64,000 bases of DNA from a virus (IMGVR_UViG_2932385599_000003:1-64000), one strand, 5' to 3'; shown: positions 16,437-54,971, counted from the first letter of the stretch. Program-made: numbers and translations. Notes: generated from the sequence alone by a model not told the origin.

Positions 16437-17189
16437 TCAGGCGTCATCACCCCCTTCCTGCACCTCGGCGCGCAGAGACGTCGTCCAGCGGAGGATCGTC
16501 GACCCCTCCGCGACCTTGACAGCAACCTCAACGACGCGGCCGTCCTCCAGCGTCACGGTGCGAACGACCTGCGTGACGACCACCTCGGCCGCGGTGAGGC
16601 CCAGGGCCTCCTTCTCGGCCGTCGTAGCGAGCCGGCTGGTGACCTCCTCGAGGACCTGGTCCTGAGCGACACCCAGACGCGACGCCGCCAACTCCCTCGA
16701 TGCCCCGGTGGAGACCGGCTCCTGCAACTCCGGGGCCACCGCGATCACGTAGGCGGGGTAGTAGCTGCTGCTCACGTGAACCGGTACACCCCCCCTGCTG
16801 ACGACCCGGCGACGCATCTGCACGGGCGTCCCCGGCGCGACCTCAAGCCGCGCCGCGACCAGCGCATCCGCGCCGACGGTGCCCACCTCGAGAATCCGCG
16901 AGGACTCGCTGCCGCCGAGAGCGCTGCCTGTAGCCGCGTGCAGCGCCACCCGGGTTCCGATGCCGGTGCTGGCCGGCGGGGCTACCAACGTGCCGACCCC
17001 CGGCTCGACGAGGGTCAGCCCCTCCATCTTGAGAACCCGGTATGCGCGGTTCACGGTCGTGTGTGCGACGCCGAACTGCTCGCTCGTCTTCTTGAAGCTC
17101 GGGAGCGAGTCACCGGGCCGAAGCGTTCCGTCCTGGATCTGCCGGCGAAAGTGCGCAGCGATCTCTGCATACCCAGGGGTCTCGGGCAT
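16437..17189 (-). CDS. GntR/HutC-family repressor with UTRA domain (KorA/KorSA/TraR-like)
   Basis: YAEIAAHFRRQIQDGTLRPGDSLPS...FGVAHTTVNRAYRVLKMEGL..EPGVGT; divergent from the transfer operon. Confidence 0.9.
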   Translation of the reverse strand: MPETPGYAEIAAHFRRQIQDGTLRPGDSLPSFKKTSEQFGVAHTTVNRAYRVLKMEGLTLVEPGVGTLVAPPASTGIGTRVALHAATGSALGGSESSRILEVGTVGADALVAARLEVAPGTPVQMRRRVVSRGGVPVHVSSSYYPAYVIAVAPELQEPVSTGASRELAASRLGVAQDQVLEEVTSRLATTAEKEALGLTAAEVVVTQVVRTVTLEDGRVVEVAVKVAEGSTILRWTTSLRAEVQEGGDDA

Positions 17190-17427
17190 GGCCTGCCTCC
17201 TCTCATAGTCGTGTACTGCTCACCTCATCGTGTGCAGTTGTGTCCTTCCGAGCCTAGTCTAGAGAAACATGTAGCGCTGAGGGCCGCGACGGGTCTACAT
17301 TGGTCTTGTCGGAACGGCGGGAGCCCGGAAACGCCGAGAGGCCCAGGTGCGCATTCACCTGGACCTCTCAGGGACCCCGAAGGATCCGACGAACCGTCCT
17401 ACCTGCGCATTCAGGAGGCAGATCCGC

Positions 17428-17796
17428 ATGAAGCAGGATCGCACACCCAGCACCACCCCCGCCGTCACGGCCGTCCTCTCCGAGGCGTTGCGTCGCGGCG
17501 CCAGCAACGAGCCGGTCACCGAGCCGCTGTCCCTCACCGCGGCCGCCGCCCTGGAGCGCCTGGAGTGGGCGTTCGCCCCCCGCGGCCCCCTCACCCCCAC
17601 CGTGCTCCGCCTGCGCACCGCGATGCGCGCCGCCCGCTACAACCCCGACCTGCCCCACCAGGTCGAGGCGTTCGCCACGATCGCCACCATCGACACCCCC
17701 TACCTGCGGGCCCTCCTCACCGGCCGCGCCCCCCTCGACCGGCGCCTCCCGCGCCACCGCGTCGCGCAGGCCCTCGGCATCAAGGCGGTGGCGTGA
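17428..17796 (+). CDS. hypothetical protein, possible C-terminal HTH
   Basis: AGGAGG RBS; FATIATIDTPYLRALLTGR...VAQALGI. Confidence 0.65.
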   Translation: MKQDRTPSTTPAVTAVLSEALRRGASNEPVTEPLSLTAAAALERLEWAFAPRGPLTPTVLRLRTAMRAARYNPDLPHQVEAFATIATIDTPYLRALLTGRAPLDRRLPRHRVAQALGIKAVA

Positions 17797-18287
17797 TGGA
17801 CAAGGTCGCCCTCGCGTTGACGTTCCTCTCCCAGCTCGCCCGCCTGGAGCAGCACACGGCCGAGCCCGGCACCCGCCTCACCCTGCGCACCCCGGACGGC
17901 GAGTTCGCCGGCGAGGTCGTGCTCCCCGAGTCCGTCGTGCAGGCCCTCACCACCGCCGCCAGCGCCATCGCCGACGCCCGCGACGAGCTGGCCGCTCCCG
18001 CGCCGGGCCCCGCGCCCGAGCCGGACGCGGACCTCGACGAGCTGATCGCCCACTACGCCACCCACCTCACCACCGACGCCACCCACCGGCGCAGCAGCAC
18101 CCCCGACCCGTCCGCCGCCGCCGTGTTCGCGGCAACCCACCCGCACCTCGCCGCCGACATCCTCGCCCTCTACAACGAGGTCGACCCGCGTACCTACCTC
18201 GACGACATCGTCGCCGCCGACTGCCCCGAGGCCGCGCAGGCCGCGTACGAGCAGATGGTCACCGGCGAGTGGGACGGCGAGCTGTGA
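17796..18287 (+). CDS. hypothetical protein
   Basis: TGATG coupling; typical codon usage. Confidence 0.7.
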   Translation: MDKVALALTFLSQLARLEQHTAEPGTRLTLRTPDGEFAGEVVLPESVVQALTTAASAIADARDELAAPAPGPAPEPDADLDELIAHYATHLTTDATHRRSSTPDPSAAAVFAATHPHLAADILALYNEVDPRTYLDDIVAADCPEAAQAAYEQMVTGEWDGEL

Positions 18288-18712
18288 CGACCATCCCCCA
18301 CCCCGCCGTTCCCCCGCTCGACGACGACCTCGCCGACCGCATCGCCGACCTGCGCGGCATCCACCGCGGCATCGACCTCATCCTCGACGGCGCCCGGCAC
18401 CTGGCCCTCAGCGAGCTGACCCTCGACCAGACCCAGACCCTGCTGTCCACCATCGCCGGGAACGGCGGCGTCGACGTCCTCGACGTCCTCGCCCAGCTCG
18501 TCCGCCGCCTCACCGACCCCGCCCAGAACCCGTCCTTGCGCGCCCTCGACCCGGACGTGCAGAAGGCCGTGCAGCGGCTGGGGGAGCGGCACGCGTACGA
18601 GACCGCCGCCTACACGCCCCGCGACTGCCCCCCGGAGGCCGCCGCTCTCATCGACGGCCTCCCGCCCGCCACCCACGCCGCCATCACGCCGACCCAGGAG
18701 CACACGTCATGA
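18284..18712 (+). CDS. hypothetical protein
   Basis: GTGA coupling; typical codon usage. Confidence 0.7.
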   Translation: MTTIPHPAVPPLDDDLADRIADLRGIHRGIDLILDGARHLALSELTLDQTQTLLSTIAGNGGVDVLDVLAQLVRRLTDPAQNPSLRALDPDVQKAVQRLGERHAYETAAYTPRDCPPEAAALIDGLPPATHAAITPTQEHTS

Positions 18713-18786
18713 CGGACGAGGAGCGCAAGGCCCTGTCGGACAAGGTCCGCGACGCCAACAAGCGCAGCGAGAACCGCCCCCGCTAG
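18709..18786 (+). CDS. 25-aa small protein MTDEERKALSDKVRDANKRSENRPR
   Basis: AGGAG RBS and ATGA coupling. Confidence 0.5.
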   Translation: MTDEERKALSDKVRDANKRSENRPR

Positions 18787-18870
18787 ACCACCTTCCCCGC
18801 GGGGTCCGGCCCGGGAGCCGACACCAGGCCGGACCCCGCACCACGACCACCCACCACCAAAGGACCAGCC

Positions 18871-19173
18871 ATGCAGAACACCACCACCATCACGTGGCCC
18901 GAGGGCGTCATCGCCCGCTACCTCACCGTCGCCGGGACGGCCCTCGCCCGCGAGGACCTCGCCGTCGACGTCGAGACCCTGACCACCGTCGACCACGACG
19001 AGCCCTACGCCACCCGCAGCACCTGCCGCGGCTGCGCGACCTGGGACGAGCGGGACTACGGCCTGTACCGCAACTACCACGGCGACGCCCGGACGCGGGC
19101 CTCGCAGGACGACGCCCGCAGCTGGGCCCAGCAGCACGCCGAGACCTGCCGCGCCCTGCCCCGCCCCGCCTGA
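18871..19173 (+). CDS. mobile-element Zn-binding protein
   Basis: CRGC...ARSWAQQHAETCRALPRP; AAAGGA RBS. Confidence 0.7.
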   Translation: MQNTTTITWPEGVIARYLTVAGTALAREDLAVDVETLTTVDHDEPYATRSTCRGCATWDERDYGLYRNYHGDARTRASQDDARSWAQQHAETCRALPRPA

Positions 19174-19250
19174 CCGCACCCCGCCACCCGGCCGGGCCCG
19201 CACACCACGGGCCCGGCCCCACCCCCAACCCAACCTGAAAGGACCCCACC

Positions 19251-19805
19251 ATGAACACCACCCCCACCCCGCCCGCCCCCATCTGGACCGACGCCCTCAC
19301 CCTCGCCGCCGCCGAACTCCACCACCAGACCTGGACCGGCCACTCCGGCGAGCAGGTCACCGGCGAGCAGACCGCCAGCCACCTCGACACGGTCGCCGCC
19401 CTCCTCACCCAGCACGGCTGGGCCGCCCCCCACACCACCCCCAGCGCGAGCAGCAGCATCGACATCCCCGACGACGAGTCGATGACCGTCAAGGACATGC
19501 TCCGCACCCTCCTCCGCTTCGCCCGCCACCTCACCGAACCGGGCGACCCGCGCCTCACCTTCACCGACGCGATGTGCAAGGCCACGGCCACCAGCGACTG
19601 CGACACCCGCGACGTCGCCGGGAGGGTCCTCAACGCCATCCTCCGCGCCCGCACCGGCGCCAGGTTCCCCCACTGCCACGCCTGGGCCAGCCGGGCCGAC
19701 CGCACCTGGGACGACATCACGGGCCTCCTCGCCACCGGCGCCCACCTCGCCCGCCAGCACGGCCCCACCACCACCGACGCCCCCGCCCCCCACCTCGCCG
19801 CCTGA
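19251..19805 (+). CDS. DUF6197-like hypothetical protein
   Basis: LDTVAALLTQHGW...AWASRADRTWDDITGLL. Confidence 0.6.
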   Translation: MNTTPTPPAPIWTDALTLAAAELHHQTWTGHSGEQVTGEQTASHLDTVAALLTQHGWAAPHTTPSASSSIDIPDDESMTVKDMLRTLLRFARHLTEPGDPRLTFTDAMCKATATSDCDTRDVAGRVLNAILRARTGARFPHCHAWASRADRTWDDITGLLATGAHLARQHGPTTTDAPAPHLAA

Positions 19806-19823
19806 CCGCAGGAAGGACCCGCC

Positions 19824-20291
19824 GTGAGCCTGCCCGACCAGCACCCGACCGCCCCCGTCGGGCAGCCCACCCCGACCACCACCCCGCACCCGTACACCCC
19901 CTACACCCCGACCCACCACGACGGCCCGCTCGTCTACATCCCCCACCCCACCCACCCCAACCTGTCCACCCCCGTCCCCCGCGAGGCCGTCCCCATGACC
20001 ACCCCCACCCCGGCCCGCGACCTCACCCCCCAGCCCCTCCTCGACCCCACCGCCCAACGCATGCTCGCCGCCGGCCTCGGCGCCGGCACCGCCGCCGCCG
20101 GAATCGGCTGGGGCGCCGCCCAACTCGTCTCCGCTCTCGCAGCCGGAGCCACCGGCCTCGTCGTCCTCGCGCTCCTCCTCCTCGCCACCCACCTCACCCG
20201 CCCCCGCACCACGCACATCGAGCAGCACGTCACCAACCACGTCCGCGGCTTCGCCCGCGCCACCACCCACATCGAAAGGACACCCCGATGA
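19824..20291 (+). CDS. Spd-like membrane protein
   Basis: Pro-rich N-terminus and hydrophobic Gly/Ala hairpin, within the transfer region. Confidence 0.6.
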   Translation: MSLPDQHPTAPVGQPTPTTTPHPYTPYTPTHHDGPLVYIPHPTHPNLSTPVPREAVPMTTPTPARDLTPQPLLDPTAQRMLAAGLGAGTAAAGIGWGAAQLVSALAAGATGLVVLALLLLATHLTRPRTTHIEQHVTNHVRGFARATTHIERTPR

Positions 20292-20542
20292 CCTGCTGGT
20301 TCTGCGGCGCCGACAACCCGCCCGGCGCCAACCGGTGCGGCTTCTGCAACCACCGCGCCGACGACGGCCCCAACGCCCTGGCCCCGCTCTACGGGCCCGA
20401 CGACCACGACGCCCTCAACCACACGATGCAGCTCCTCGGCGACGACCTCGCCCTCGACCACACCCTCACCGGCGACTGGCACACCGCCCTCCGCCAGGCC
20501 GCCGCCAAGTGGGCCAACGAGGGCACCACCCTCGCCGCCTGA
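20288..20542 (+). CDS. zinc-ribbon small protein
   Basis: MTCWFCGADNPPGANRCGFC; ATGA coupling. Confidence 0.65.
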   Translation: MTCWFCGADNPPGANRCGFCNHRADDGPNALAPLYGPDDHDALNHTMQLLGDDLALDHTLTGDWHTALRQAAAKWANEGTTLAA

Positions 20543-20583
20543 CACCCACCACCCGACACCCACACGAAAGGCCACCCACCACC

Positions 20584-20799
20584 ATGACCACCCACACCAA
20601 GCAGCCCACCCACCACTGGATCATCACCCTCGAGGTCCCCGGCCGCGCCTCCATCAGCCGCGACGGCACCTGCACCCTCCGCCCCGGCGACACCCGCGCC
20701 AGCGTCCTGCAGGCCATCCGCAACACGATCACCGAGGAGCACCCCGTCTTCCGCTCCGCGAACGTCCTCTTCTTCTCCATCGCCCCCAACCAGCTCTGA
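20584..20799 (+). CDS. small hypothetical protein
   Basis: GAAAGG RBS; HHWIITLE...NVLFFSIAPNQL. Confidence 0.7.
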   Translation: MTTHTKQPTHHWIITLEVPGRASISRDGTCTLRPGDTRASVLQAIRNTITEEHPVFRSANVLFFSIAPNQL

Positions 20800-20840
20800 C
20801 CCCCACCCGCACCACCCGCCCCCCTGAAAGGACCGTCATC

Positions 20841-22169
20841 GTGACCACCGCCCCGGCCGGCACCCAGCCGCCCCACACCCCCGCCTCCGGGGAGGAGCAG
20901 CCCCACACCGCCGGGGCCACCCCCCACACCCACCACGACGACCGGCCCAACCCCCTCTACGACCCGCTCGTCACCCCCGCCCACGACGTCAAGACGTGGA
21001 TCATCCGCGGCGTCCTCATCCTCGTCATGGCCGCCGCCCTCGGCGTCGGCACCTGGTCCATCTACACCCTCCTCACCGAGGTCTTCGGCACCCCCCGCCC
21101 CATCGCCATCCTCGGCTGCGGACTCTTCGACGTCGCCGGCATCTTCTTCGCCCTCCTCGCCCAGTCCTACGCCACCACCACCGACTCCGGCCTCGCCCCC
21201 CGCCTCGCCATGCTCGCCATGGTCACCACCTCCAGCTGGGTCAACTGGAAGCACGCCCACATGGAGAACTGGGGCACCGTCGGCGGGATCATCTTCGCCG
21301 CCGCCCCCGCCATCGCCGAGCTCGCCTTCGAGATGTGGCACCGCTACGAGCACCGCGAGACACTCCGCCGCCTCGGCCGCGTCGCCGACTCCCTCCCCGT
21401 CCTCGGCAAGTGGGCATGGATCGCCCACCCCATTCGCTCCCGCAAGGCCCTCGACGCCCACATCAAGGCCGCCCTCACCGAGCAGGAAGCCGTCGCCGCC
21501 TTCCGCGAGAAGGTCGCCGGAGCGCGCGCGGCCGCCATCGTCGGTGGCGCCCCCACCACCCCCCGTAGCGCCGACGCCACACCGCTCCGCCACGACGCCA
21601 CGACCAAGCCCTCCATCACCCTGGAGCGGATTCCGCTTCCCGCCACGGAGCGCCCCCAGAGCGCCAGCACCGCCACGCCCCCCACCCGCCGTAGCGCCTC
21701 CGCCGTGGCGCCCGCTCTCGTAGCGCCCGTAGCGGACGCCACGGAACCCGCCACGCCCCCGGCCCCCGCCCGTGGCGCCACCACCGCCCAGAGCGCCACG
21801 GCCCCCCGCCACGCCACCGCCCCCGACGCCACGACAACCGCCACACCCCCGGCCGGCCCCCGCCGCAGCACCCCCGCCACAAGCGACGCCACCATGGCGC
21901 CGCCCGCCAAGACCACCACCCAGCCCAACCGCACCAGCGGCACCACCATCGGCCGGCCCGCCGCCGAACTCGCCATCCGCGCCCTGTACGACACCCTCGG
22001 CCGCCGCCCCCTGGAGTCCGAGATGGTCGCCGAGCTCAAGCGGATCGGCAGCCCCTCCCAGTCCCGCCAGTTCGCCAACAAGCTCCGCCGCGAACTGGAG
22101 GAGAAGGACCCGGCGCTCGCCGCCCGCGGAGCGGACAACGTCCGCCCCCTCACCGGCACCGACGGATGA
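20841..22169 (+). CDS. DUF2637-like (SpdB-type) four-TM spread/transfer protein with repetitive linker
   Basis: Four hydrophobic helices (aa about 55-165), Ala/Thr/Pro linker, C-terminal helical domain. Confidence 0.75.
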   Translation: MTTAPAGTQPPHTPASGEEQPHTAGATPHTHHDDRPNPLYDPLVTPAHDVKTWIIRGVLILVMAAALGVGTWSIYTLLTEVFGTPRPIAILGCGLFDVAGIFFALLAQSYATTTDSGLAPRLAMLAMVTTSSWVNWKHAHMENWGTVGGIIFAAAPAIAELAFEMWHRYEHRETLRRLGRVADSLPVLGKWAWIAHPIRSRKALDAHIKAALTEQEAVAAFREKVAGARAAAIVGGAPTTPRSADATPLRHDATTKPSITLERIPLPATERPQSASTATPPTRRSASAVAPALVAPVADATEPATPPAPARGATTAQSATAPRHATAPDATTTATPPAGPRRSTPATSDATMAPPAKTTTQPNRTSGTTIGRPAAELAIRALYDTLGRRPLESEMVAELKRIGSPSQSRQFANKLRRELEEKDPALAARGADNVRPLTGTDG

Positions 22170-22221
22170 CCCCAGCCCGGACCGCGGCCGGGCCCGCCCA
22201 CCCCACCGGGCCGGCCCGGAA

Positions 22222-22333
22222 GTCCGACTCCGACTCCGACCGCGACTCCGACCCACCGCCCCGAACCCCCCTCCCAGCAGGCACAACCCCCCGCCCCGTC
22301 CGGTCGCAGTCGCGGTCGGAGTCGCAGTCGTAC
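22222..22333. repeat. 32-bp inverted repeat built from 6-bp (C/G)CGAC(T/C) units
   Basis: 22222-22253 versus the reverse complement of 22302-22333: 29/32 identical, 48-nt spacer. Confidence 0.9.
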
Positions 22334-22360
22334 TGACCACGCCACCACCAGGAGGACCCC

Positions 22361-23950
22361 GTGGCCCGCACCGCACCCCCCGCGGCACCGCCCGCCGCGA
22401 CCACCGACCCCACCCCGCCCACCGCGTACGCGGCGCCCGCGCCCGTCCCGGCTACCGCCGCATGGCCCTCCCCGCCACTGCCCCCCACCTTCGACCCCGC
22501 GCCCGCCACCCCACACGCCGACACCAGCACCACCCCGACCAAGGCCCGCCGTCCCGCCCGCGGCGGCCTCCCCGTCGGCCCCGCCCTCGCCACCGCCGGG
22601 AACGCCACCGCCCTCACCCTCACCACCGCCCTGCACTACGCCGGCCCCATCGGCGCCGCCACGACCGGCGCCATCATGGCGGCCGGGATCGCCGCCACCA
22701 CGCTCCGGCAGCACGCCACCGCCCGACGCGCCCAGGCCACCCGCTCCGCCCGCACCGGCGCCACCAACGGCGCCACACCCACCGGCCGTGGCGGGTACCG
22801 AGGCGCCACGAAAGGCGCCACGCCACGAGCCGGGAACGCCACCACGGCGGGCAGTGGAGCGCCACGCCGTGGCGCCACGGGGCGTGGGACGCTACGCCAC
22901 GGCGCCACACCTTCCGTTTCGGGAAAGCGTGGCGCCACGAACCAGCGCCACGGCGCCACCGGCTGGACGCTCCGCCCCAACGGGAAGACCAGCCGCCACG
23001 CCCCCGCCGCCGGGACCGTGGCGCCCGGCGCCACGAAGGCGCCCCGCCCCGCCACGCCCCGCCCCGGCGCGACCACGCCTCATGGCGCCCCCCACGGTCT
23101 TCGCAACAGCAACCGTTCTGCGGTGGCGGGTCATGGGCGCCACGGCACCATCAAGGCCGCCCTCGGGCGCGCCACCCGCGCCGCCGCCACCGGCACCCGC
23201 GCCACCGGCCGACTCGCAGCCCGCGGCGGCGCCCTGGCCGCCCGAGGCGCCACCACCGCGTGGAAAGCCACCGCCCTCCTCCGCGCGGCCGCCGCCCGGC
23301 AACTCGCCCTCGCCGCCACCACCACCGCCCGCCACGCCCGCCGCGCCCCCGCCGGCCTCCTCCACGCCGCCCTCGCCACCACCGCCGGCCTCCTCACCGC
23401 CCTGTGGAAGCGCAGCCCCAGCGCCGGATACCGACGCCTCATCGACGTGTGGAAGCGCCTCCGCGCCCGCAGCGCAGCCAAAGCCAAGACCCACACCCCC
23501 GACACCCCCGGCACCGTCGCCCCACCCGTCGCCGACTCCGTGCGACAGCCCACCCACCCCACCCCCACCACACACACCGGAGGAACCCACATGACCGGCG
23601 GCCACCACTTCCTCGCCCCCGCCATGGAGATGCACCGCCTCGCCACCACCTACGAGCCCACCGGCATGCTCCAGGTCGGCGCCGACTTCGCCACCCTCCC
23701 CGAGGCCCTGCAGCTCCACGCCGACGCCATGAAGGTCACCCTCGAGAAGGCCGACGCCTACTGGCCCGTCGACCCCGCCATCGTCGACCTCCTCGGCCAG
23801 ATCCACGCCCTGCAACTGCGCGCCGCCGAGATGGCCCGCGAACTCACCCCCGCCTTCGAGCAGCTCCACGACGTCGACCTCACCCGCCTGCACAACCCCC
23901 GCAAGAGCGCCCAGGCCGAAGCCATGTGGGACGTCTCCCGCAACCTGTAA
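22361..23950 (+). CDS. TraA-like transfer accessory protein (TM region, GAT repeats, helical C-terminal domain)
   Basis: AGGAGG RBS; directly upstream of traB. An internal GGAGG-ATG at 23591 could give a separate short product. Confidence 0.6.
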   Translation: MARTAPPAAPPAATTDPTPPTAYAAPAPVPATAAWPSPPLPPTFDPAPATPHADTSTTPTKARRPARGGLPVGPALATAGNATALTLTTALHYAGPIGAATTGAIMAAGIAATTLRQHATARRAQATRSARTGATNGATPTGRGGYRGATKGATPRAGNATTAGSGAPRRGATGRGTLRHGATPSVSGKRGATNQRHGATGWTLRPNGKTSRHAPAAGTVAPGATKAPRPATPRPGATTPHGAPHGLRNSNRSAVAGHGRHGTIKAALGRATRAAATGTRATGRLAARGGALAARGATTAWKATALLRAAAARQLALAATTTARHARRAPAGLLHAALATTAGLLTALWKRSPSAGYRRLIDVWKRLRARSAAKAKTHTPDTPGTVAPPVADSVRQPTHPTPTTHTGGTHMTGGHHFLAPAMEMHRLATTYEPTGMLQVGADFATLPEALQLHADAMKVTLEKADAYWPVDPAIVDLLGQIHALQLRAAEMARELTPAFEQLHDVDLTRLHNPRKSAQAEAMWDVSRNL

Positions 23951-24033
23951 CCCCCTGCCCGGCGGCGCCCCACCACGGGGCGCCGCCGCCCCCCCCAGCC
24001 CACCTCCCAACCGCCAGAAAGGCACCCCAACCC

Positions 24034-26451: not shown

Positions 26452-26795
26452 GCGCCCTGGTGCCCCTACCACCGCCCCTGGGGTACACCGCCCGCCCACC
26501 CGGCGGGCGGTCCCTCACCGTCATCCCCGACCCCCACACCACCGAGCACACCAGCCCACTGCGCCGGGCCCTGCGCGCCGCCGGCCTCCCGTCGCTGCCG
26601 CCCGACGAGGACACGGCCCGGACCCGGACCGGGGGATAGCAGCCCGGACAACCAGCCGCCCATACGCCACCATCGAAGCAGCGCGGATCGGGCCGGGATC
26701 CCAGCGTCCCCGCGCCCAGGCCCAGCCCGATCCGTACAACCCCGTAGGCCCCGCTCCCACACCCCCCGTGGAGCGGGGCCCACGCACATCCCCGC

Positions 26796-27569: not shown

Positions 27570-27634
27570 CCGTGCAGGATCGCACCGCCACCGCCCAGGG
27601 GAATCCGAAACCGTTGAATCGGGGATCATCAAAG

Positions 27635-27649
27635 CAGGCGCGGGGCCTG
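27635..27649 (+). promoter_or_regulatory. late-gene motif CAGGCGCGGGGCCTG, copy 1
   Basis: Identical 15-mer at 30455 and 32440. Confidence 0.75.
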
Positions 27650-27675
27650 ACCACACGAGCGGGAGCCCCACCGCC

Positions 27676-29845: not shown

Positions 29846-30050
29846 CCGCACAGAACAGGCCCGAGAAGGGCCCTAGACGGCGATCTGACGGAACCGGGGT
29901 ATCTCCGGCCGAAACTCGCCCAGGATTGGTGGTTAGTAGCGTCGATCTCTGGAGCGGAGAGATTGCAGAACTTCTGCAGATTCACGGATGGTGAACTCTT
30001 ACGTCGGATAGCTTGTGGCTAGCACGTCCCAAAAATTGGGTACGTACGAC

Positions 30051-30469: not shown

Positions 30470-30486
30470 TGTGCGGAGGGAACTTC

Positions 30487-34819: not shown

Positions 34820-34821
34820 CC

Positions 34822-45488: not shown

Positions 45489-45499
45489 GGGAGACCGCC

Positions 45500-46438: not shown

Positions 46439-47538
46439 CGCCCAGCCCCATGCGGGTCCTCACCCAGCACGCCCTGACCGGAGCCTGGCAGTCCCTGTCC
46501 CTGCCCCTGCGCGACCTGGAGTACGGGCCGGAGCTGAACGGGCCCGGCACCCTGTCGGGCACCCTGGAACCCCGCCTCCTCGCCCAGCACCCCACCCTCG
46601 TCGACCCCGGTACCACCTGCATCTACGTCGAAGCCGACGGGAACATCCGGTGGGGCGGACTCGTCTGGGACGTCCGCACCCAAGGCGACCGCCTCACCGT
46701 CGAAGCCGCCTCGTGGTCGTCGTACGCGCAGCGCCGCCACGACCTCGACGGAGAACTCGGCGGACGCGGCCCCTACACCTACGCCGACCCCTGCACGGTC
46801 ATCCGCGACATGTGGGCCTACCTGCAGTCGGTGCCGGACGGGAACCTCGGCGTGCTCGTCGACCCCACCACGACCACCGCGAAGGTCGGCACCCCCGCAG
46901 ACCCCTACAGCTTTCCGTTCTGGGAGCACCCCAACCTCGGGGACCGGATGGACGACCTCGTCTCCGGTGACGCCACCCCGGACTACACCTGCACCACCGC
47001 GTGGAACGAGGACCGCACGGCGGTGGTGAAACGGATCCGGCTCGGCTGGCCCCGCCTCGGCGCCCGCCGCACCGACATCAGCTTCGCGTCCGGCGTGAAC
47101 ATCCTCGAAGACCCCGAGATCCAGCTCGCGGGCGACGACTACGCCCAGGTCGTCGTCGCCGCGGGCGCGGGGGACGGCCGCGCCAAGCGCCGGCAGGTCT
47201 CCGCCGTCCGCAACGGCCGGCTCCGCCTGGAGCACATCCTCGACCTGCCCGAGGTGAAAGCCAACGACGTCCTCGCCGCCCGCGCGGCCGCCGAACGCGC
47301 GATCCGGCAGACCCTCGGCACCGTCGAGCAGATCACCATCCGCGACACCCCCGCCGCCCCCTTCGGCAGCTTCCAGGTCGGCGACGACGTGTACACCCGC
47401 GTCCACAACGCCTGGACCGACTACACCGGCTGGTGCCGCGTCACCGGCTGGACCATCCGCCCCCACGCCACCGGCGGCCCCCAGGCCACCATCAGCCTGC
47501 GCCCGGCCGACACCTACCAGTACGGAGGAACCCCGTGA
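46435..47538 (+). CDS. minor tail / baseplate hub protein
   Basis: ELNGPGTLSG, IRWGGLVW, RLGWPRLG. Confidence 0.8.
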   Translation: MTPSPMRVLTQHALTGAWQSLSLPLRDLEYGPELNGPGTLSGTLEPRLLAQHPTLVDPGTTCIYVEADGNIRWGGLVWDVRTQGDRLTVEAASWSSYAQRRHDLDGELGGRGPYTYADPCTVIRDMWAYLQSVPDGNLGVLVDPTTTTAKVGTPADPYSFPFWEHPNLGDRMDDLVSGDATPDYTCTTAWNEDRTAVVKRIRLGWPRLGARRTDISFASGVNILEDPEIQLAGDDYAQVVVAAGAGDGRAKRRQVSAVRNGRLRLEHILDLPEVKANDVLAARAAAERAIRQTLGTVEQITIRDTPAAPFGSFQVGDDVYTRVHNAWTDYTGWCRVTGWTIRPHATGGPQATISLRPADTYQYGGTP

Positions 47539-49166
47539 CCGACATCGGCCGTAAGCTCGCCCAGCTTGAGAGGCGGCTCGCCGCCGTCGAGCGGCAGTCC
47601 CGCCTCGGGTCCGCCAGCGTCGACAACACCGCCCTGGAGATCCGCGACCAGGCCGGGTCCCTGCGCGGCCTGATCGGGCAGCAGGCCGACGGCACCACCG
47701 CCGTCAACATCACCAACGGGCCCACCCCGCCCGCGCCGTCCACCCCGAGCGTCGCCCCGGCCCTCGGCGGTCTCGCCGTCACCTGGGACGGCACCTTCAC
47801 CGACAGCACCCCGACGCCGCTGGACTGGGCCCGCGTCGAGGTCCACACCGGCGCCACCATCGACTTCACCCCGACCCCCGACACCCTCCAGGCCACCATC
47901 GAGACCCCGCAGGGCGCCGTCGCCTACGTCCCGACCAGCACACCGCTGTACGTGCTCCTGCTGGCCCGGAACACCTCCGGCACCGCCTCCGCACCCACCA
48001 CGACCGTCGGCCCGTACGAGCCGCGCCCGGTCGCCGACGACATCGGCCCCGGCGGCATCACCACCACCCACATCGCCGACGACGCCATCACCACCCCCAA
48101 GATCCTCGCCAACGCCATCGTCACCGCGCACCTCGCCGCCGGCAGCGTCGACGCCACCGCCCTCAAGGCCGACGCGATCACCGGCAAGACCATCACCGGC
48201 GGCACCGTCACCGGCAGCACCGTCCAGACCAGCGGCACCGGGCAGCGCCTCGTCCTCAACCCCAACGCCGCCGACCCCGGCGACCCCCTCAACACCGTCC
48301 CCGCCGTCGAACTCCACTCCGGCGCCGTCAGCCAGGTCACCCCCGGCTTCCTCTCCGCGAAGATCTCCGACGACACCCCGGCCCGCCCCTACGTGTCCCT
48401 GCGCTCCCCGGCCGTCGACACCGAAGGCCCCGGCGACACCGCCGACCTGCCCATCGACTCCGAGCTGCGCCTCTACTCCAGCCAGCCCGGCGTCCGCGGC
48501 GGCAGCTTCCTGCTGGACGCCAACCCCAACCCCTACGCCGACCAGTACGGCCTCTCCCGCGTCCGCGGCTACGTCGCCGACAGCACCACCGACACCAGCC
48601 TCCTCGAACTCAGCTGCTTCGACGCCGACAGCGCCCCCGGCGGCTCCGGAACCCTGGGGCCCGGCACCACCGTCGAGATGACGGGCAGCCAGATCCGGCT
48701 GCGCGCCCAACGCTCCGGCGCCGACTTCTCCACCTACATCACCCCCGACGGCTTGACCGTGTCCGGCACCAACTGGACGACGTACACCCCGACCGTCGCG
48801 GGCGGCGGCACCGCCACCTACACCACCCGCACCGGCTACTACTGGAAGCTCGGCAAGGTCGTCTTCGTCACCATCGACATCACCGTCGGCGCGGCCGGCT
48901 CCGGCGCCAGCCTCGTCACCATCACCGCCCCCAGCAACATCGACCGCAGCGCCCGGCAGATCCTGCCCATCCAAGGCCGCGGCGTGTACCTGTCCGGGAT
49001 GGCCGCCACCGGCAGCGCCCTGGCCATGGAGACCGGCTCCGGCGCCGTCATCGACCAGCTCGTCATGTCCAACGACTCCGCCACCAACCGCGACGGCGTC
49101 CTCACCGGCGCCAACCTCATCGGCGGCGCCCGCCTCACCATCACCGGCTGGTACCGCGAAGCCTGA
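47535..49166 (+). CDS. tail fiber / central spike protein
   Basis: Coiled-coil N-terminus, fibronectin-like region, ITxxxI repeats, WTTYTPT...GYYWKLG. Confidence 0.8.
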   Translation: MTDIGRKLAQLERRLAAVERQSRLGSASVDNTALEIRDQAGSLRGLIGQQADGTTAVNITNGPTPPAPSTPSVAPALGGLAVTWDGTFTDSTPTPLDWARVEVHTGATIDFTPTPDTLQATIETPQGAVAYVPTSTPLYVLLLARNTSGTASAPTTTVGPYEPRPVADDIGPGGITTTHIADDAITTPKILANAIVTAHLAAGSVDATALKADAITGKTITGGTVTGSTVQTSGTGQRLVLNPNAADPGDPLNTVPAVELHSGAVSQVTPGFLSAKISDDTPARPYVSLRSPAVDTEGPGDTADLPIDSELRLYSSQPGVRGGSFLLDANPNPYADQYGLSRVRGYVADSTTDTSLLELSCFDADSAPGGSGTLGPGTTVEMTGSQIRLRAQRSGADFSTYITPDGLTVSGTNWTTYTPTVAGGGTATYTTRTGYYWKLGKVVFVTIDITVGAAGSGASLVTITAPSNIDRSARQILPIQGRGVYLSGMAATGSALAMETGSGAVIDQLVMSNDSATNRDGVLTGANLIGGARLTITGWYREA

Positions 49167-49343: not shown

Positions 49344-50165
49344 ATGCCCACCCACCCCACCATCGACGCGTACGCGTACCCGGTCCAGCCGTCCCTCGGC
49401 CGCCACCACGTCCTGGACGGACGCAGCCTCGCCTACCGGCGCCCCTACGACGGCCACCGGCTGCGCACCGCCGCGTGGGAACCGCGCATCCCCGTCCTCG
49501 ACCAGCGCAACCTGATCGCCCAGGGCATCCACACCAGCACGATGGGCCTGGACACCGACATCGACGCGCTCGCCTCGTGCACCGGCAACGCCGCCACGAC
49601 CCTGCTGTCCGTCATCGCGCCGGACCGCGCCACCGCCGACGGCCTCGACCTCGCCGACACCGCGGCCGCCCAGCGGTACGCGATCAGCCTGTACGCCGAC
49701 GCCACCCGGCAAGACCGCTGGCACACTTCCTGCTGGCCCACCGACGACTGCGGCTCCTCCGGCCTCGGCGCCGCCAAGGCCTTGCGCGCACGCGGCCTGA
49801 TCGACCAGTACGGGCACGCCACCACCGCCGAGGAACTCTGCGCCCTCCTGCAGACCGGTCCCGTCCTCCTCGGCATGCCCTGGTACGCCGCGTTCTCCGA
49901 GCCGGACGGCGACGGCTTCATCGACAACGTCGCCTGGTCCGCGTCCCCCCTCGAAGGCGGCCACGAGGTGTGCGTCACCGCCCTCGAACGCGTCCCGAAC
50001 TGGGACGGGACCGTCGACTACGACCACACCATCCTCCGCTTCCGGAACTCCTGGGGCCCCTCCTGGGGCGACCACGGCGACGCCCGGATGCGCCTGTCCA
50101 CCTACCTCGCCCTGCGCGACCACTGCGACGTCATCCAGCCCCGACTCGACGGAGTGACCCCGTGA
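49344..50165 (+). CDS. papain-like (C1) cysteine peptidase
   Basis: VLDQ, SCTGNA (Cys), GGHEV (His), RNSWG (Asn). Confidence 0.8.
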   Translation: MPTHPTIDAYAYPVQPSLGRHHVLDGRSLAYRRPYDGHRLRTAAWEPRIPVLDQRNLIAQGIHTSTMGLDTDIDALASCTGNAATTLLSVIAPDRATADGLDLADTAAAQRYAISLYADATRQDRWHTSCWPTDDCGSSGLGAAKALRARGLIDQYGHATTAEELCALLQTGPVLLGMPWYAAFSEPDGDGFIDNVAWSASPLEGGHEVCVTALERVPNWDGTVDYDHTILRFRNSWGPSWGDHGDARMRLSTYLALRDHCDVIQPRLDGVTP

Positions 50166-51535
50166 CCACCAGCACCGGCGCCTACCACGTGGCGGTCGAC
50201 CACCTCGACCCCGACACCCTCACCCCCACCACCACCTACCTGGGCACCTGCGACCAGGCCCACGTCGACGAGGTCCGCGCCATCGCCGCCCTCGACACCA
50301 GCCCCCACCACCTCCTCGACCACCCCCGCCAGCCGGGCGCGTTCCTCGTGCTCCGTGCGGACGGCGACCTCGACGTGTACGTCCCGGTCGACGCGCCCGA
50401 CTACACCGTCCGCACCCCCGACCCGGACCCGCAGGACCCGGCCGCGGGCGGCAGCATCGACACCCCGGCGCCGGGCGCGGCGGATCGGCCCGTCGAGCCG
50501 GACCGGCCGCGCGGCGCCGCCGGGCCCGCCTACATCGCCGGCGCCGTCCGCTTCGGCGCGCAGCGCATCGGCGGCGCCATGGACACCCCCACCGCCCCGC
50601 CCCGCGCCGTCTGGCACACCACCGAGTCCCCGGCCGGCAGCGCCTACTTCTACTCCATCGCCGCCTACCTCATACGGGTCGGCGCCGAACCCCAGGTCAT
50701 CTACGACCCCGAGTCGGACCGGCTCGGCCAGTTCGGGCCGCTCACCTCCTCCGGCCGCGCCCTGCGCAACGACGGCGCCCGCCGCACCAACCGCGAAGGC
50801 CGAGTGTGCATCCAGGTCGAGGTCCTCGGCCGCGCCCGCTCCCCGTGGACGAACGGCTTCGACCCGGCGGCGAAGCCGAACTACCGCAAGCTGATCGCCG
50901 CGATGCGCGCCCACGGCATCCCCGACACCTGGCCAGCCGGGCCGCCGCCGGCGACCGCCGCCGCCGCGACCCGCCGCGACCGCACCACCTGGCAGACCAA
51001 GGGCGGCCACTACGGGCACTCCCAGGTCCCCGGCAACGACCACTGGGACCCCGGCGCCATCGACACCAGCCTCGTGCCCGGACCGCGCCCCGGCACCGGC
51101 GACGACACCCCCGCCGCCGGCAGCGGCGTGTACGTGGTGAAGAAGGGCGACACCCTCTCCGCCATCGCCGTCCGCCACAGCACCACCACCGCGGCCCTGG
51201 CCAAGCTCAACGACATCAAGGACCCCGACCGCATCCGCGCCGGGCAGCGGCTCCGCCTCCCCGGAGTCGCTGCGGCCAAGCCGCAGTACGAGCCGTTCCC
51301 CGGCGCCGCGTTCTTCCACACCGGCCGACGCAGCCCCCTCGTCACCGCGATGGGCCGCCGCCTGGTCGCCGAGGGCTGCGGCCGCTACAACCACGGCCCC
51401 GGCCCGCAGTGGACCAACGCCGACCGCGCCTCCTACGCCGCGTGGCAGCGCAAGCTCGGCTACTCCGGCACGGACGCGGACGGCATCCCCGGCAAGGCGT
51501 CCTGGGACGCCCTCAAGGTCCCCAAGCAGCTCTGA
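50162..51535 (+). CDS. endolysin: N-terminal domain, Zn amidase, LysM, peptidoglycan-binding domain
   Basis: VWHTTES, IQVEV, GHSQVPGNDHWDPG, YVVKKGDTLSAIA, ADGIPGKASW. Confidence 0.9.
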   Translation: MTTSTGAYHVAVDHLDPDTLTPTTTYLGTCDQAHVDEVRAIAALDTSPHHLLDHPRQPGAFLVLRADGDLDVYVPVDAPDYTVRTPDPDPQDPAAGGSIDTPAPGAADRPVEPDRPRGAAGPAYIAGAVRFGAQRIGGAMDTPTAPPRAVWHTTESPAGSAYFYSIAAYLIRVGAEPQVIYDPESDRLGQFGPLTSSGRALRNDGARRTNREGRVCIQVEVLGRARSPWTNGFDPAAKPNYRKLIAAMRAHGIPDTWPAGPPPATAAAATRRDRTTWQTKGGHYGHSQVPGNDHWDPGAIDTSLVPGPRPGTGDDTPAAGSGVYVVKKGDTLSAIAVRHSTTTAALAKLNDIKDPDRIRAGQRLRLPGVAAAKPQYEPFPGAAFFHTGRRSPLVTAMGRRLVAEGCGRYNHGPGPQWTNADRASYAAWQRKLGYSGTDADGIPGKASWDALKVPKQL

Positions 51536-51578
51536 CCCCCTGGTACCGCCCACCCCTCTCACCCCTATGGAGACACCT

Positions 51579-51938
51579 GTGTCCACCCCGAAGTTCCTCG
51601 GCCGCGAACCCGCCGCCTGGCTCGCCCTGGTCGCCGTCCTCGTCAAGCTCGCCGCCGCGTTCGGCTGGGACGCCAGCCCCGCCGTGCAGGCCGCCGTCAA
51701 CGGCTTCGCCGCCGCGGGCATGGGCGTCCTCATCGCCGTCGTCGCCAAGGACGGGCTCGGCGCAGCCCTCGTCGGCTTCGCCCAGGGCGCCCTCGCCCTC
51801 GCGCTCGGCCTCGGCCTCGACTGGTCCAGCGAGCGACAGGCCGTCGTCATGGCCTTCGTGACCGTCGCCGTCGGCATGTGGGACCGCACCCAGGTCACCG
51901 CCCCCGTCCCGCCCACCCGCCCGCTCACCACCACCTGA
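51579..51938 (+). CDS. holin (putative)
   Basis: FLGREPAAWLAL; four TM segments; RTQVT; follows the lysin. Confidence 0.8.
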   Translation: MSTPKFLGREPAAWLALVAVLVKLAAAFGWDASPAVQAAVNGFAAAGMGVLIAVVAKDGLGAALVGFAQGALALALGLGLDWSSERQAVVMAFVTVAVGMWDRTQVTAPVPPTRPLTTT

Positions 51939-51975
51939 CCATCCGCACTACGCCACCCCCCACCTGGAGCACGCC

Positions 51976-52269
51976 GTGACGGACGACCCGACCCCCGGAG
52001 AGATGGTCCGACGCCTGGAAGACCGCCTCACCGACGTCCGCGACGACATCCAGCAACTCGAGCGGCGCCTCGACGGCAAGGTCGACCAGCGCATCTACGA
52101 CCTCCGCCACGAAGCGCTGGCCTCTCGGGTGTCGACGCTGGAGACGCACCGGGAGAAGGACACCGAGAAGCTCGTCGCGACCCGACGCTGGCTGATCGGC
52201 GCGGTGATCGTGCCGCTGGTCGGGATCCTCCTCCCGGTCATCATCCTGCTGAGCAGGGGGACATCATGA
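51976..52269 (+). CDS. coiled-coil plus TM membrane protein (lysis cassette)
   Basis: [11 protein letters not shown]...[17 protein letters not shown]. Confidence 0.75.
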
Positions 52270-52952
52270 GGTCGACGATCCGAGCCGAGGAGCGGCGCTG
52301 GCGACGAGGGGACGTCCTGGCCATCGCCGCGGCGCTCGCCCTCGGGACCGCGTTCGCGTGGATCATCCTGTCGGTGCAGGCGCTCCGCGAAGACCTGCAC
52401 ACGGCGAACGCCGCCCGCGACGCTCTCGCCGAGCAGGTCCTGCAGCTGGGGGAGAAGCCGGTGGCGGGGGAACCCGGCGACCGGGGCGCCCCCGGCCGGA
52501 CCGTCGTCGGCCCGGCCGGAGCACAGGGTCCTCCCGGCCCAGTCGGCCCGCCGGGCCTGCCGGGCGCCTCCATCACGGGCCCGCCCGGCCCGGTCGGCCC
52601 GTCCTCGACCGTGCCGGGCCCGGCCGGGCAGGACGCCGTGGGCGAGGCCGGCCCGCCCGGCCCCGCCGGGTCCCCCGGCCCGGCGGGACCTCCAGGGCCG
52701 GCCGGACAGGACGGCACCGACGGCACCGACGGCCAGGCCGGGGCGGACGGCCGCGACGGGCAACCCCCCACGGGCTGGACCTACACCGACCCCCAGGGCA
52801 CCACCTACACCTGCACCCGCGCGCCCGACTTCGACCCGACAGCCCCCCGCTACACCTGCACCACAACCGCCCCGGCGCCCGGCCCCGGCCCGGCCCCCAG
52901 CCCCAGCGCACCCAACACCATCGCGCTCGCGCCTGAGCGCCGCCGTCTCTAG
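52266..52952 (+). CDS. membrane-anchored collagen-like protein
   Basis: N-terminal TM, Gly-X-Y repeats, C-terminal YTC...YTC. Confidence 0.8.
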
Positions 52953-52961
52953 GAGCACGCC

Positions 52962-54971
52962 GTGCCGTTCCCCGAGGGCCTGCCGACCACCCTGCTCACC
53001 TACACCGCGGTGAACCCCGCCGGCGGCGGCCCGGCCACCGGCACCGTCGAGTTCGCGCCGACCGTCCCCGCCATCACCCTCCCCGGCCACGAGACGGTGT
53101 TCACCGGCCGCGGCACCTACGCCTTCGACGCCCTCGGCCGGCTCGTCGACGGCGACCAGATCGGCGTACGGCTCCTGCCCAACGACGTGCCCGACGCCAA
53201 CCCGACCACGTGGGCGTGGCTGGTGACCGTACGCGTCACCGGCGCGCCCGCCCGCTCCTTCTACATCCGCCTGTCCACCAGCCAGCCCACCGTCGACCTG
53301 GCCGCCCTGGACCACGCCGACCCGGCCCGCGCCCAGTACGTCCTCGTGCCCGGCCCCCAGGGAGAACCCGGGCCCGCAGGCCCCGCCGGGGCTGACGGGG
53401 CGCCGGGGGAGCAGGGGCCCAAGGGCGACACCGGCGAGATGGGCCCGCAGCCGCCCCTCGGCGCGGCCGGCGCCGGCCCGACCATCGCCCTGCGCTCCGA
53501 CGACCCCACCACCACCAACCCCCGGACCCCCCTGGCCCACGCCGGCTCCCACGCCCCGGGCGGCACCGACCCGCTCACCGCAGCAGCGATCGGCGCCGAG
53601 ACCCCCGACGGCGCGCAGGCCAAGGCCGACGCCGCCCAGCAGGCCGCCATCACCGCAGCGGCGGCGGACGCCACCACCAAGGCCCAGGCCGCGCAGACCG
53701 CCGCCGTCCAAGCCGCAGCCACCGACACGACAAGCCAAGTCGCCTCCCACACCGCGGGCACCGACCCGCACAGCGACCGCGCCTGGGCCCGCGCCCGCTT
53801 CCTGCCCACGGCCACCTCGCGCCGCCGTGACCTTCCCGACCCGGCCCTCGCCGACGGCCTCCACACCGGCACCGCACCGACCATCACCACCACCCAGACC
53901 ACCACCCCCACCAGCGGCTACATCAAGTACGCGCCGCCCGGAGTCGCCCTGACCGGCACCGACGTGACCGGCCCGTTCACCTACGCCGGCGCGGGCGGCT
54001 TCCAGATCGGCACCTCCGGGGCGAACCTCTCCTACGTCAAGCCGACGTCCCGCTACCCCAACACCTACGACTCCGGCCAGTCCGTGTGGGCCCTGGAGTT
54101 CTCCACCGACGCCGCCGTCTTCCAGCTGCGCTTCCAGCACCAGACCGCCGCGATGTACCGCCTGTCCATCGACGGCCGCAAGGCCACCGAACTGATGCAA
54201 CCCGTCGGCGGCACCACGGCCGGCTCCGGGCACATGATGACCGTCGACCTCGGCAGCAGCGCCCCGCGCCGGATCCGTTTCGACTTCTCCACCGTCCCGT
54301 TCGGCGGCATCTACCTCCCCCCGTCGGCCACCATGTGGTCCTCCCCCCTGCAGGGAGGCCGCTTCATGGTCCTCGGCGACAGCATCAGCGACGGCTCCGC
54401 GCAGAACACCGGCGGCGGCGCCGGAACCTGGTTCGCGCGCGCCGCCCGGCTCCTCGGCGCGCCGGACGCCTGGGAGCAGGGCCGGGGCGGCACCGGCTAC
54501 ACCGCCGCCGGGTCCTTCGCCACGTTCGGAACGCGGGCCGCGGCCGACGTCATCGCCTGGGCCCCGACCCGGCTGGTCATCTGGGGCGGCTACAACGACA
54601 ACACCGGCTCCCAGTCGGCCATCGCGACGGCCGCCGCCGACCTGTACGTGCAGATCCGGGCCGGGCTGCCGGACTGCGAGGTGTACGTGATCGGCTGCTG
54701 GGCCCCGACCGGCTCACCGGGCGCCTCCATCACGAACACCGACACCACGCTACGCACCGCGGCGGCCGCCGCCGGGTACCCATTCATCTCCCCGGTGACG
54801 GGCTCGGTGTACGACGCGACGGGCGCCCTGGTCGTGACGCACGGGCCGTGGATCACCGCGGGGAACGCGGCCGCGTACATCGGCGGCGACGGTGTCCATC
54901 CGACGGACGCCGGCCACGTGTACCTGTCGCGCCGGATCGTCGCCGCGGTCCGGGAGCTGATGCCTGCGTGA
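52962..54971 (+). CDS. tail spike-like protein with SGNH/GDSL hydrolase domain
   Basis: Virion-anchor-like N-terminus, short collagen segment, LGDSIS, GGTGY, GGYND, DGVHP. Confidence 0.85.
   Translation: MPFPEGLPTTLLTYTAVNPAGGGPATGTVEFAPTVPAITLPGHETVFTGRGTYAFDALGRLVDGDQIGVRLLPNDVPDANPTTWAWLVTVRVTGAPARSFYIRLSTSQPTVDLAALDHADPARAQYVLVPGPQGEPGPAGPAGADGAPGEQGPKGDTGEMGPQPPLGAAGAGPTIALRSDDPTTTNPRTPLAHAGSHAPGGTDPLTAAAIGAETPDGAQAKADAAQQAAITAAAADATTKAQAAQTAAVQAAATDTTSQVASHTAGTDPHSDRAWARARFLPTATSRRRDLPDPALADGLHTGTAPTITTTQTTTPTSGYIKYAPPGVALTGTDVTGPFTYAGAGGFQIGTSGANLSYVKPTSRYPNTYDSGQSVWALEFSTDAAVFQLRFQHQTAAMYRLSIDGRKATELMQPVGGTTAGSGHMMTVDLGSSAPRRIRFDFSTVPFGGIYLPPSATMWSSPLQGGRFMVLGDSISDGSAQNTGGGAGTWFARAARLLGAPDAWEQGRGGTGYTAAGSFATFGTRAAADVIAWAPTRLVIWGGYNDNTGSQSAIATAAADLYVQIRAGLPDCEVYVIGCWAPTGSPGASITNTDTTLRTAAAAAGYPFISPVTGSVYDATGALVVTHGPWITAGNAAAYIGGDGVHPTDAGHVYLSRRIVAAVRELMPA

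Follow-up and report, generated by a model that had tools for sequence, protein, structure and literature searches.

Results

The 64,000-nucleotide stretch of viral DNA analysed here (IMGVR_UViG_2932385599_000003:1-64000, referred to as the window) comprises the first 64,000 bases of a single-contig assembly of 83,377 bp with an N count of 0 and a G+C content of about 72%. The element it belongs to is very probably a Streptomyces plasmid-phage of the pZL12 family, that is, a plasmid, a tailed phage and a conjugative element at once, in which a cassette coding for a double-stranded DNA translocase has been exchanged within a fixed slot. This kind of element has been known since 2010 (pZL12); the non-orthologous translocase cassette appears, from the sequence comparisons, to be this member's own feature. 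Gene content, folds, synteny, breakpoints and distribution were observed directly and are described below. The coordinates of the features are collected in Table 1.

Family membership and gene order

The DNA of positions 16000-40000 matched 44 plasmid records at 72-77% identity, 43 of them from Streptomyces, as well as phage ZL12. The major capsid protein was found in 34 Streptomyces or Kitasatospora plasmids of 85-152 kb. From g38 to g62, wherever a homologue exists, the proteins are 42-73% identical to those of pZL12 and 37-91% identical to those of pSLE1 (tblastn) and their order is the same; g47 has no homologue in pZL12. The replication, partition and regulator genes also have homologues in the expected order in both plasmids. 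The order GntR regulator, divergent small genes, translocase, reverse gene, terminase, portal and capsid is common to pZL12, pSLE1, pCQ3, pCQ4 and NZ_CP108353.1. In pZL12 (phage ZL12; NC_013420, 90,435 bp, circular) the small genes are followed by genes for a membrane protein, a large unknown protein and an FtsK-like tra product, then by the reverse gene and the terminase-to-lysis genes, and the plasmid shares ParAB, SSB, a tyrosine recombinase and a WYL-type regulator pair with the present element. It is called well characterised and syntenic with pSLE1 in a passage of PMC4487206, and sections of PMC7157519 provide further experimental background. pSLE1 (S. leeuwenhoekii, NZ_LN831788, 86,370 bp) has the closest capsid protein (91% identity), the same slot, synteny, ParAB and DciA.

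A reading of the window made from the sequence alone (the sequence-only reading) had proposed one element that spreads by virions and by conjugation and is kept as a plasmid. This proposal agrees with the collinearity with pZL12, one of the comparisons it had suggested, and with pSLE1 and pCQ3/pCQ4, and also with the plasmid genes. The parAB genes, which it had suggested seeking outside the window, are there: a Pfam scan located ParA, ParB, DciA and a Rep-like helix-turn-helix protein at contig positions 66,457-71,371. RusA and SSB are also encoded outside the window, and a DnaB-type replicative helicase (g21) is encoded within it. Gene calling was based on G+C content at third codon positions (GC3) and gave 110 genes on the 83,377-bp contig. 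Circularity is proposed because gene order continues across the contig ends as in circular pZL12 (gene-by-gene tblastn), which is its sole basis. Hypothetical joining of the ends interrupts no gene, and the length of the contig compares with about 85-94 kb for the circular molecules of the pZL12 family.

The translocase slot

Each of the 34 capsid-bearing plasmids was searched for a translocase gene that precedes the capsid gene and shares its strand. Among the matches listed, a pSLE1-type translocase lies in the slot of at least 18 of them, 6.2-9.2 kb from the capsid gene. Three carry a pZL12-type enzyme (7.6-8.5 kb), six a weak match to g35, the translocase of the present element (25-29% identity; five at 9-11 kb and one at 20.5 kb), and two, pCQ3 and pCQ4, annotated TraA/TraB. 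A slot translocase is present in at least 29 of the 34 relatives, and the other five have no match among the matches listed. The arrangement, which the sequence-only reading had taken to be rare, is the norm of the family, and possession of the module is usual among close relatives. Thirteen of the 34 have a GntR gene (E≤1e-30), and its distance to the capsid gene is 15.6-19.6 kb in every case. At least five types of translocase cassette occupy the slot, namely those of pZL12, pSLE1, the TraA-TraB of pCQ3/pCQ4, the NBC_01353 type, and the g34-TraB pair of the present element.

In blastn, pZL12 and pSLE1 align with positions 16,342-17,436 and, in short pieces, with sequence as far as 18,972. 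Nothing aligns between there and 26,470, where similarity begins again, 19 bases downstream of the traB stop. No tblastn match to g29-g34 was found in pZL12 or pSLE1. The corresponding pZL12 product, gp071, is 27% identical to g35, which ends in an FtsK-gamma domain; gp071 was compared by identity alone. The slot of pSLE1 holds a 774-aa translocase of another type, which is also common, among the matches listed, on plasmids of 100-490 kb, and g35 gives no match in pSLE1. pCQ3 (NC_013449) and pCQ4 (NC_019307) share the GntR-slot-terminase architecture and the capsid family, but their slot contains a TraA of 180 aa and a TraB of 676 aa.

The closest relatives of g34 (49% identity, C-terminal 202 aa) and TraB (47%) in the plasmid collection are encoded by NZ_CP108596.1, a 51.7-kb circular phage-like plasmid of Streptomyces sp. 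NBC_01177, to which the g34-traB segment is 65-70% identical in nucleotides and 47-49% in amino acids. There, too, DUF2637, g34-like and traB genes are found just upstream of HNH, terS and terL genes. Its annotation, however, describes a complete temperate siphovirus from a different lineage, with a serine recombinase, a P27-family terS and a capsid and protease of the HK97 type; its virion genes are unrelated, its TraB lacks the gamma domain, and it has no GntR homologue. Because the content of the slot is unlike that of pZL12 and pSLE1 while g34-traB matches the unrelated NZ_CP108596.1, the segment from about 19.0 to 26.45 kb appears to have been replaced, the slot staying fixed and the translocase cassette being exchanged by recombination. 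In the slot of NZ_CP108353.1 there is a DUF2637 protein 53% identical to g33 over 95% of its length, and the translocase of that slot is only 27% identical to g35. A literature search of article listings and selected passages found no account of translocase-cassette exchange in the pZL12 family. Three further plasmids of 88-102 kb (NZ_CP109332.1, NZ_CP108705.1 and NZ_CP109440.1) carry a pZL12-type translocase at 78-88% identity and gave no match to the present capsid protein; they may pair a pZL12-type cassette with another virion module or with none.

The same segment could be viewed as an independent actinomycete integrative and conjugative element (AICE), or a small conjugative plasmid, that has inserted into a prophage or plasmid and forms a second element next to it. 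Such a view would fit the unrelatedness of the 19.0-26.45 kb content to both pZL12 and pSLE1, and also the base composition, since 19-25 kb has a higher G+C fraction (0.74-0.77) and a more negative GC skew than the flanks. It does not fit the rest of the region. All of g25-g37 were scanned against Pfam and NCBIfam without an integrase or Rep family match, and the window contains no tRNA gene. Around 12.9-26.5 kb there are no att-like repeats; the direct repeats in 11000-30500 are 63-78% matches typical of high-GC coding sequence. The slot is occupied in most relatives, and family backbone is found on both sides, in GntR and g26-g28 on the left and from 26,470 on the right. Insertion of an AICE was consequently rejected as extremely improbable, and exchange of the cassette within a slot of the family is preferred.

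Transfer genes and their regulator

The sequence-only reading had placed a GntR/UTRA regulator divergent from a rightward run of about 9 kb, and both were recovered: g24 has the two Pfam domains and faces twelve plus-strand genes, g25-g36 (17347-26639, 9.3 kb). The g24 product is 84% identical to pZL12 gp080 and 82% to a pSLE1 protein, and 70-77% identical to proteins of ordinary Streptomyces plasmids of 22-55 kb. It is a candidate repressor of the transfer operon, of the Kor/TraR type. In the region between the divergent genes, positions 17262-17285 are without 12 nucleotides that are present in three family members and in the near-identical relative from sequencing run X13, in which the 12-nt insert falls behind 17270. 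What is missing is one copy of the 10-bp palindrome GTAGCGCTAC, which these relatives have twice in tandem and which may be an operator.

Among the small genes, g26-g28 are common to pZL12 and pSLE1; g29 has a weak match to DUF6197, g30 belongs to DUF6251 and has one transmembrane segment, and g31 encodes a zinc ribbon. The DUF2637-like protein had been recognised correctly and is g33. A crude hydropathy scan gave it three hydrophobic segments; SpdB2-type proteins have four membrane helices. It is a candidate spread or pore protein.

The g35 product is composed of N-terminal helices, an FtsK-fold motor with the Walker A sequence GQRGSGKT at residue 270, and two C-terminal helical domains at about residues 575-700 and 730-805, the last of which is FtsK-gamma, the only family found in the protein by a Pfam scan. 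An AlphaFold model was built from 28 sequences (mean predicted local distance difference test score, pLDDT, 75). Foldseek matched its core to the FtsK motor and to TcpA, a coupling protein of conjugation (E 6e-11 to 4e-10; template modelling score by target 0.55-0.68), and its last 70 residues to the FtsK gamma domain (0.76 by target, root-mean-square deviation 1.6). Over 451 aa the protein shares 23% identity with the TraB annotated in pCQ4 (E 1e-10), and a sequence search of the PDB returned matches at E≥0.4 only. Pfam scans of 60 proteins revealed no relaxase.

g34 and candidate clt sequences

The gene upstream of traB, g34, had been described as TraA-like. This was not supported, as no Pfam or NCBIfam family matched it, and hhalign against the annotated TraA of pCQ4 gave a probability of 0.1%; the two proteins are unrelated. 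It has a low-complexity N-terminal half, with G+C at second codon positions near 0.75-0.8, and a helical C-terminal domain of unknown fold. Its best matches in the ESM Atlas are unnamed clusters, and its model (pLDDT 80) had no Foldseek match at E≤0.001. Related loci were collected from genomes (15 usable loci) and IMG/VR (24 loci); L014 and L028 among these 39 look like one sequence filed twice. A g34-like gene lies directly upstream of traB in 38 of them, and the remaining locus begins at traB. Of these 38 loci, 37 have an open g34 frame of 470-612 codons, and the array of 8-mers found within it is therefore coding.

This array is made of GGCGCCAC. The other 38.4 kb examined contain three plus-strand and four minus-strand copies, and the whole 83-kb contig 23 plus-strand and eight minus-strand copies. 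The inverted repeat in the g33-g34 spacer holds four of the seven GACTCCGA copies of the window. According to a passage of PMC4447253, clt regions carry direct 8-bp repeats that are recognised by the cognate TraB. By its sequence, either the array or the hexamer inverted repeat may be the clt of this element; the array may alternatively be a mere Gly-Ala-Thr peptide repeat. A role at the DNA level is conceivable, though we think it doubtful. Among the 49 Arg codons of g34, six are CGT and seven CGA, and CGT makes up 4.5% in all other genes; these rare codons are no more than suggestive of DNA-level selection on the array. The 8-bp TraB motif of pSVH1 occurs 15 times in the window (7.25 expected), scattered and without forming an array, and was dropped as a clt candidate.

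At the same position of g34, 29 of 36 loci repeat a 7-8-mer at least five times. Seven such 7-8-mers were distinguished, differing from one TraB clade to the next; these seven classes were chosen, with no shuffle control, from the data in which they were counted. Among loci L010-L049, for example, the NZ_CP108596 clade has CGGGGCG, a different clade has GTAGCGG, and L045 and L046 have a 13-mer that includes CCGGATCT. The classes track the TraB clades only roughly, classes A and C each being found at two identity tiers. Given this rough fit and the post hoc choice of classes, co-evolution of motif and TraB is not claimed.

Distribution of the TraB lineage

A search of 5.8 billion proteins with g35 gave 243 matches at E≤1e-10. 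TraB forms of 776-805 aa, most of them with the gamma domain, are found on contigs mostly of 86-100 kb (best identity 83%), and forms of about 695 aa without it on contigs of all sizes, including chromosomes of 9-11 Mb. Downstream of traB, plus-strand open reading frames of at least 400 aa were obtained from 26 of the 39 related loci, the other 13 having none in the fetched stretch. These 49 reading frames include 18 portals (11 SPP1-type and seven HK97-type) and 13 large terminases (seven Terminase_6N and six Terminase_3). Locus L010 has the order DUF2637, g34, TraB, lipoprotein, terS, terL, portal. The isolated Streptomyces phages Galactica, Spocter, Hiyaa and Keanu (about 82 kb) carry full-length homologues that are 33-35% identical and annotated as FtsK-like translocases. 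Because g34-TraB precedes portals or terminases in many loci and has homologues in phages, the lineage appears to be largely phage-borne, and the g34-traB end of the cassette seems to occur mainly in other temperate Streptomyces phages and prophages.

These findings raise the alternative that g33-g35 serve the phage, either by spreading phage or prophage DNA within one mycelium or in replication or segregation, and that transfer from strain to strain is marginal. The preservation of the g34-TraB pair across genomes and IMG/VR contigs, the portals and terminases downstream and the homologues in the four isolated phages all speak for it, and spread within the mycelium was raised as an idea for the SpdB2 homologues of actinophages by Thoma et al. 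2015, in a passage of PMC4447253. On the other hand, the pZL12 gene in the same slot is reported, in a section of PMC3583192, as a tra gene required for conjugal transfer. The present cassette is also under a Kor-type GntR regulator closely related to those of ordinary small conjugative plasmids. A phage role and conjugation would use the same pump and are not exclusive. We consider a predominantly phage-serving cassette unlikely and retain a conjugative role for g33-g35.

A near-identical transfer region is present in 12 of the 18 listed sequencing runs; the 16 holders span 12 studies, and no RNA run is among the listed holders. The runs are consistent with a fixed slot and a cassette exchanged by recombination. 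In run X14 one 8.7-kb contig (contig 18) spans traB, the lipoprotein gene, terS, terL and the portal gene at about 94-95% identity. Runs X6 and X11 are near-identical to the present element from 15,001 as far as 28,960, a point in terL at which both depart from it and share 30 unlike letters; the packaging genes have therefore undergone recombination. Beyond 29,008 both are almost uncovered at 85% likeness, and X13 thins after about 25.7 kb; these are holes in coverage and no proof of absence. Read joints with sides of 20-25 letters were disregarded, since they are probably chance matches in repetitive high-GC sequence.

Virion genes

The single lipoprotein gene and the uninterrupted terminase-to-lysis region of the sequence-only reading were both confirmed. 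The lipoprotein gene g37, on the minus strand, is the sole gene between the transfer run and the virion block, and the latter consists of 28 plus-strand genes from 27676 to 54971. The proteins of the terminase region are 58-63% identical to their pZL12 and pSLE1 counterparts. The scan of the tail proteins identified no sheath protein, in keeping with a siphovirus.

It might be argued that the element now lives as a conjugative plasmid only and that its virion block has become a cryptic remnant. Particle formation is here inferred from genes alone, and the end of near-identity of X6 and X11 inside terL reveals recombination in the packaging genes. For most of g38-g58, however, the match to the pZL12 or pSLE1 homologue takes in 88-100% of its length and shows no break, no gene interrupts the block, and pZL12 itself is filed as a phage in the database. 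A decayed block is accordingly quite improbable, and we favour an element whose virion genes are intact.

The gap between terL and the portal gene (29846-30468, 623 bp, 63% G+C) has no called gene and no Rfam match. Gaps of 543-730 bp occur at the same place in pZL12, pSLE1 and pCQ4, and DNA similarity to the relatives resumes after terL only at about 30,410-30,440. This stretch may contain a small gene that escaped recognition, or it may serve as a packaging site. The terL of several relatives is interrupted or extended by homing endonuclease sequences (a LAGLIDADG domain in L010, 14376-16916; HNH genes in NZ_CP108353.1, L009, and in pCQ3, L051). The terL of the window, inside which the X6/X11 breakpoint falls, is uninterrupted.

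Other features of the contig

Two genes to the right of the virion block, g68 and g70, with the minus-strand gene g69 between them, form a recombinase region that is a candidate for multimer resolution. The divergent pair g73/g74 is a candidate immunity switch. A toxin-like cassette had also been suggested, and none was located. The g8 product (4386-5458 with its neighbour g9) has an Aca2/YdiL-like helix-turn-helix domain (E 2e-6), and g9 codes for 175 aa of no family; the pair may be what had been taken for that cassette, or an anti-defence regulator pair. The sole TTA codon among the 110 called genes is codon 88 of g7 (3022-4362), which codes for a 446-aa helix-turn-helix protein. An Rv2179c-like 3'-5' exoribonuclease domain was recognised in the product of g2 (449-1003), which shares 58% identity with pZL12 gp059. 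The gp059 gene (47257-47859) lies within the head-tail connector block of pZL12, at a place that the unrelated 83-aa g47 takes in the present element; g2 looks like a moved accessory gene. Rfam gave zero matches in the window at gathering thresholds.

Table 1. Features of the window, with positions counted from its first base.
Feature	Position	Strand	Evidence or remark
DnaB-type replicative helicase g21	12889-13908	-	Pfam DnaB_C, E 5e-68
GntR/UTRA regulator g24	16437-17189	-	Pfam GntR E 4e-15, UTRA E 1e-15
Divergent promoter/operator region	17190-17346		Four-way alignment of family members, mean column identity 72%
Eight small genes g25-g32	17347-20799	+	Gene call, Pfam, tblastn, hydropathy
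DUF2637 membrane protein g33, 442 aa	20841-22169	+	Pfam, 27.2 bits (cut-off 22.8)
33-nt inverted repeat of GACTCC-type hexamers, g33-g34 spacer	22221-22334	.	Arms 91% complementary
g34, partner gene of traB, 529 aa	22361-23950	+	Kept next to traB in related loci
8-mer array inside g34	22757-23253	+	11 plus-strand and 3 minus-strand copies
TraB-type double-stranded DNA translocase g35, 805 aa	24034-26451	+	Walker A, predicted fold, Pfam FtsK_gamma
Weak small open reading frame g36	26460-26639	+	Gene call; DNA similarity to pZL12 resumes here
Lipoprotein g37	26796-27569	-	Lipobox LVAGC; NCBIfam Rv1352/Rv1906c domain; 60% identity to pZL12 gp069
Small-terminase candidate g38 (by position) and large terminase g39	27676-29845	+	Terminase_6N, Terminase_6C
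Portal, scaffold, lambda-D-like decoration protein, major capsid protein (capsid E), neck/head-tail connectors	30469-38261	+	Pfam, PHROGs, tblastn
Major tail, chaperone-position genes, tape measure, Dit, minor tail proteins, fibre	38364-49166	+	PHROGs, tblastn
Lysis/late: g60, LysM g61, holin-like membrane proteins g62-g63, collagen-like g64, collagen/GDSL lipase g65	49344-54971	+	
Tyrosine recombinase g68, 328 aa	56409-57395	+	Pfam Phage_integrase; 74% identity to pZL12 gp036
g70	58159-59316	+	Pfam Phage_integrase, with g68 region; 60% identity to pZL12 gp034
WYL-domain regulator g73 and g74, divergent pair	60191-61344	-/+	Pfam WYL; homologues in pZL12 and pSLE1

Discussion

In the mechanism that we propose, the prophage would replicate as a low-copy plasmid by means of the Rep-like helix-turn-helix protein, DciA, the DnaB-type helicase and ParAB. 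The GntR/UTRA repressor would silence the divergent operon that ends in the DUF2637 protein, g34 and TraB. When expressed, TraB would act as a membrane-anchored FtsK-fold pump. As in pSVH1 and pIJ101, it would use C-terminal winged-helix domains to read a repeat-bearing clt on the element, and it would then push double-stranded DNA into the neighbouring hypha or across septa. The downstream siphovirus packaging, head, tail and lysis genes would provide the second route, by virions. By analogy with pZL12, both routes of transmission would work in the present element.

The TraB/clt/Spd/TraR systems of pSVH1 and pIJ101 are similar in that a GntR-type regulator faces a divergent operon with an FtsK-like pump as its last product, and that pump has N-terminal membrane helices and a C-terminal DNA-recognition domain, as described in passages of PMC4447253. 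The present element differs from them in that its clt sequences are candidates and in two points that belong to a group of findings weighing against the proposed mechanism. First, the Spd-like membrane proteins of the sequence-only reading could not be substantiated, since there is no Spd family match and only g30 and g33 among g25-g33 have a predicted membrane segment. Second, of the FtsK/SpoIIIE TraB in that reading, the Walker A motif, the FtsK/TcpA fold and the gamma domain stand, but the Pfam FtsK_SpoIIIE motor model did not match g35 at E≤0.01, nor did any NCBIfam family. In addition, ten of the eleven plus-strand GGCGCCAC copies of the array are in frame and code for Gly-Ala-Thr, and they may be a peptide repeat only. 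The 12-nt deletion in the operator-like region may have altered the regulation of the transfer operon. The frequency of this TraB lineage in integrated prophages and viral contigs may mean that its main role is a phage function and not plasmid conjugation. The ends of the 83,377-bp contig show neither a terminal overlap nor an inverted terminal repeat. Finally, repression, clt use, transfer, virion production and the circular plasmid state are steps that we infer from the genes and their relatives.

The pZL12-type family is large, with 34 plasmids in the collection sharing the capsid type. Typing by MOB-suite, as given in the database, classes 38 of the 44 DNA matches and 46 of the 50 capsid matches as non-mobilizable, and yet most of the 34 plasmids carry a translocase in the slot. 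MOB-suite typing relies on relaxase and type IV secretion system markers, and TraB systems are without both; surveys are therefore likely to undercount the mobility of TraB elements. Plasmid-phages that conjugate blur three textbook routes of gene flow, a combination known in Streptomyces since pZL12. The swapping of the cassette among plasmid-phages, plain plasmids and integrated phages provides natural variants for mapping the recognition of DNA by TraB.

The observations can be joined in a wider reading, which we put forward tentatively and hold to be somewhat unlikely in its entirety. In this reading the slot between the GntR and terminase genes would be a docking site for double-stranded DNA translocase cassettes; the g34-TraB pair would be mainly phage-borne, upstream of the packaging genes of unrelated temperate Streptomyces phages; and clt would consist of lineage-specific 7-8-mer arrays in the N-terminal half of g34. 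If it is true, phages of mycelial hosts would in general have a second route of transmission, namely virion-free movement from cell to cell driven by TraB.

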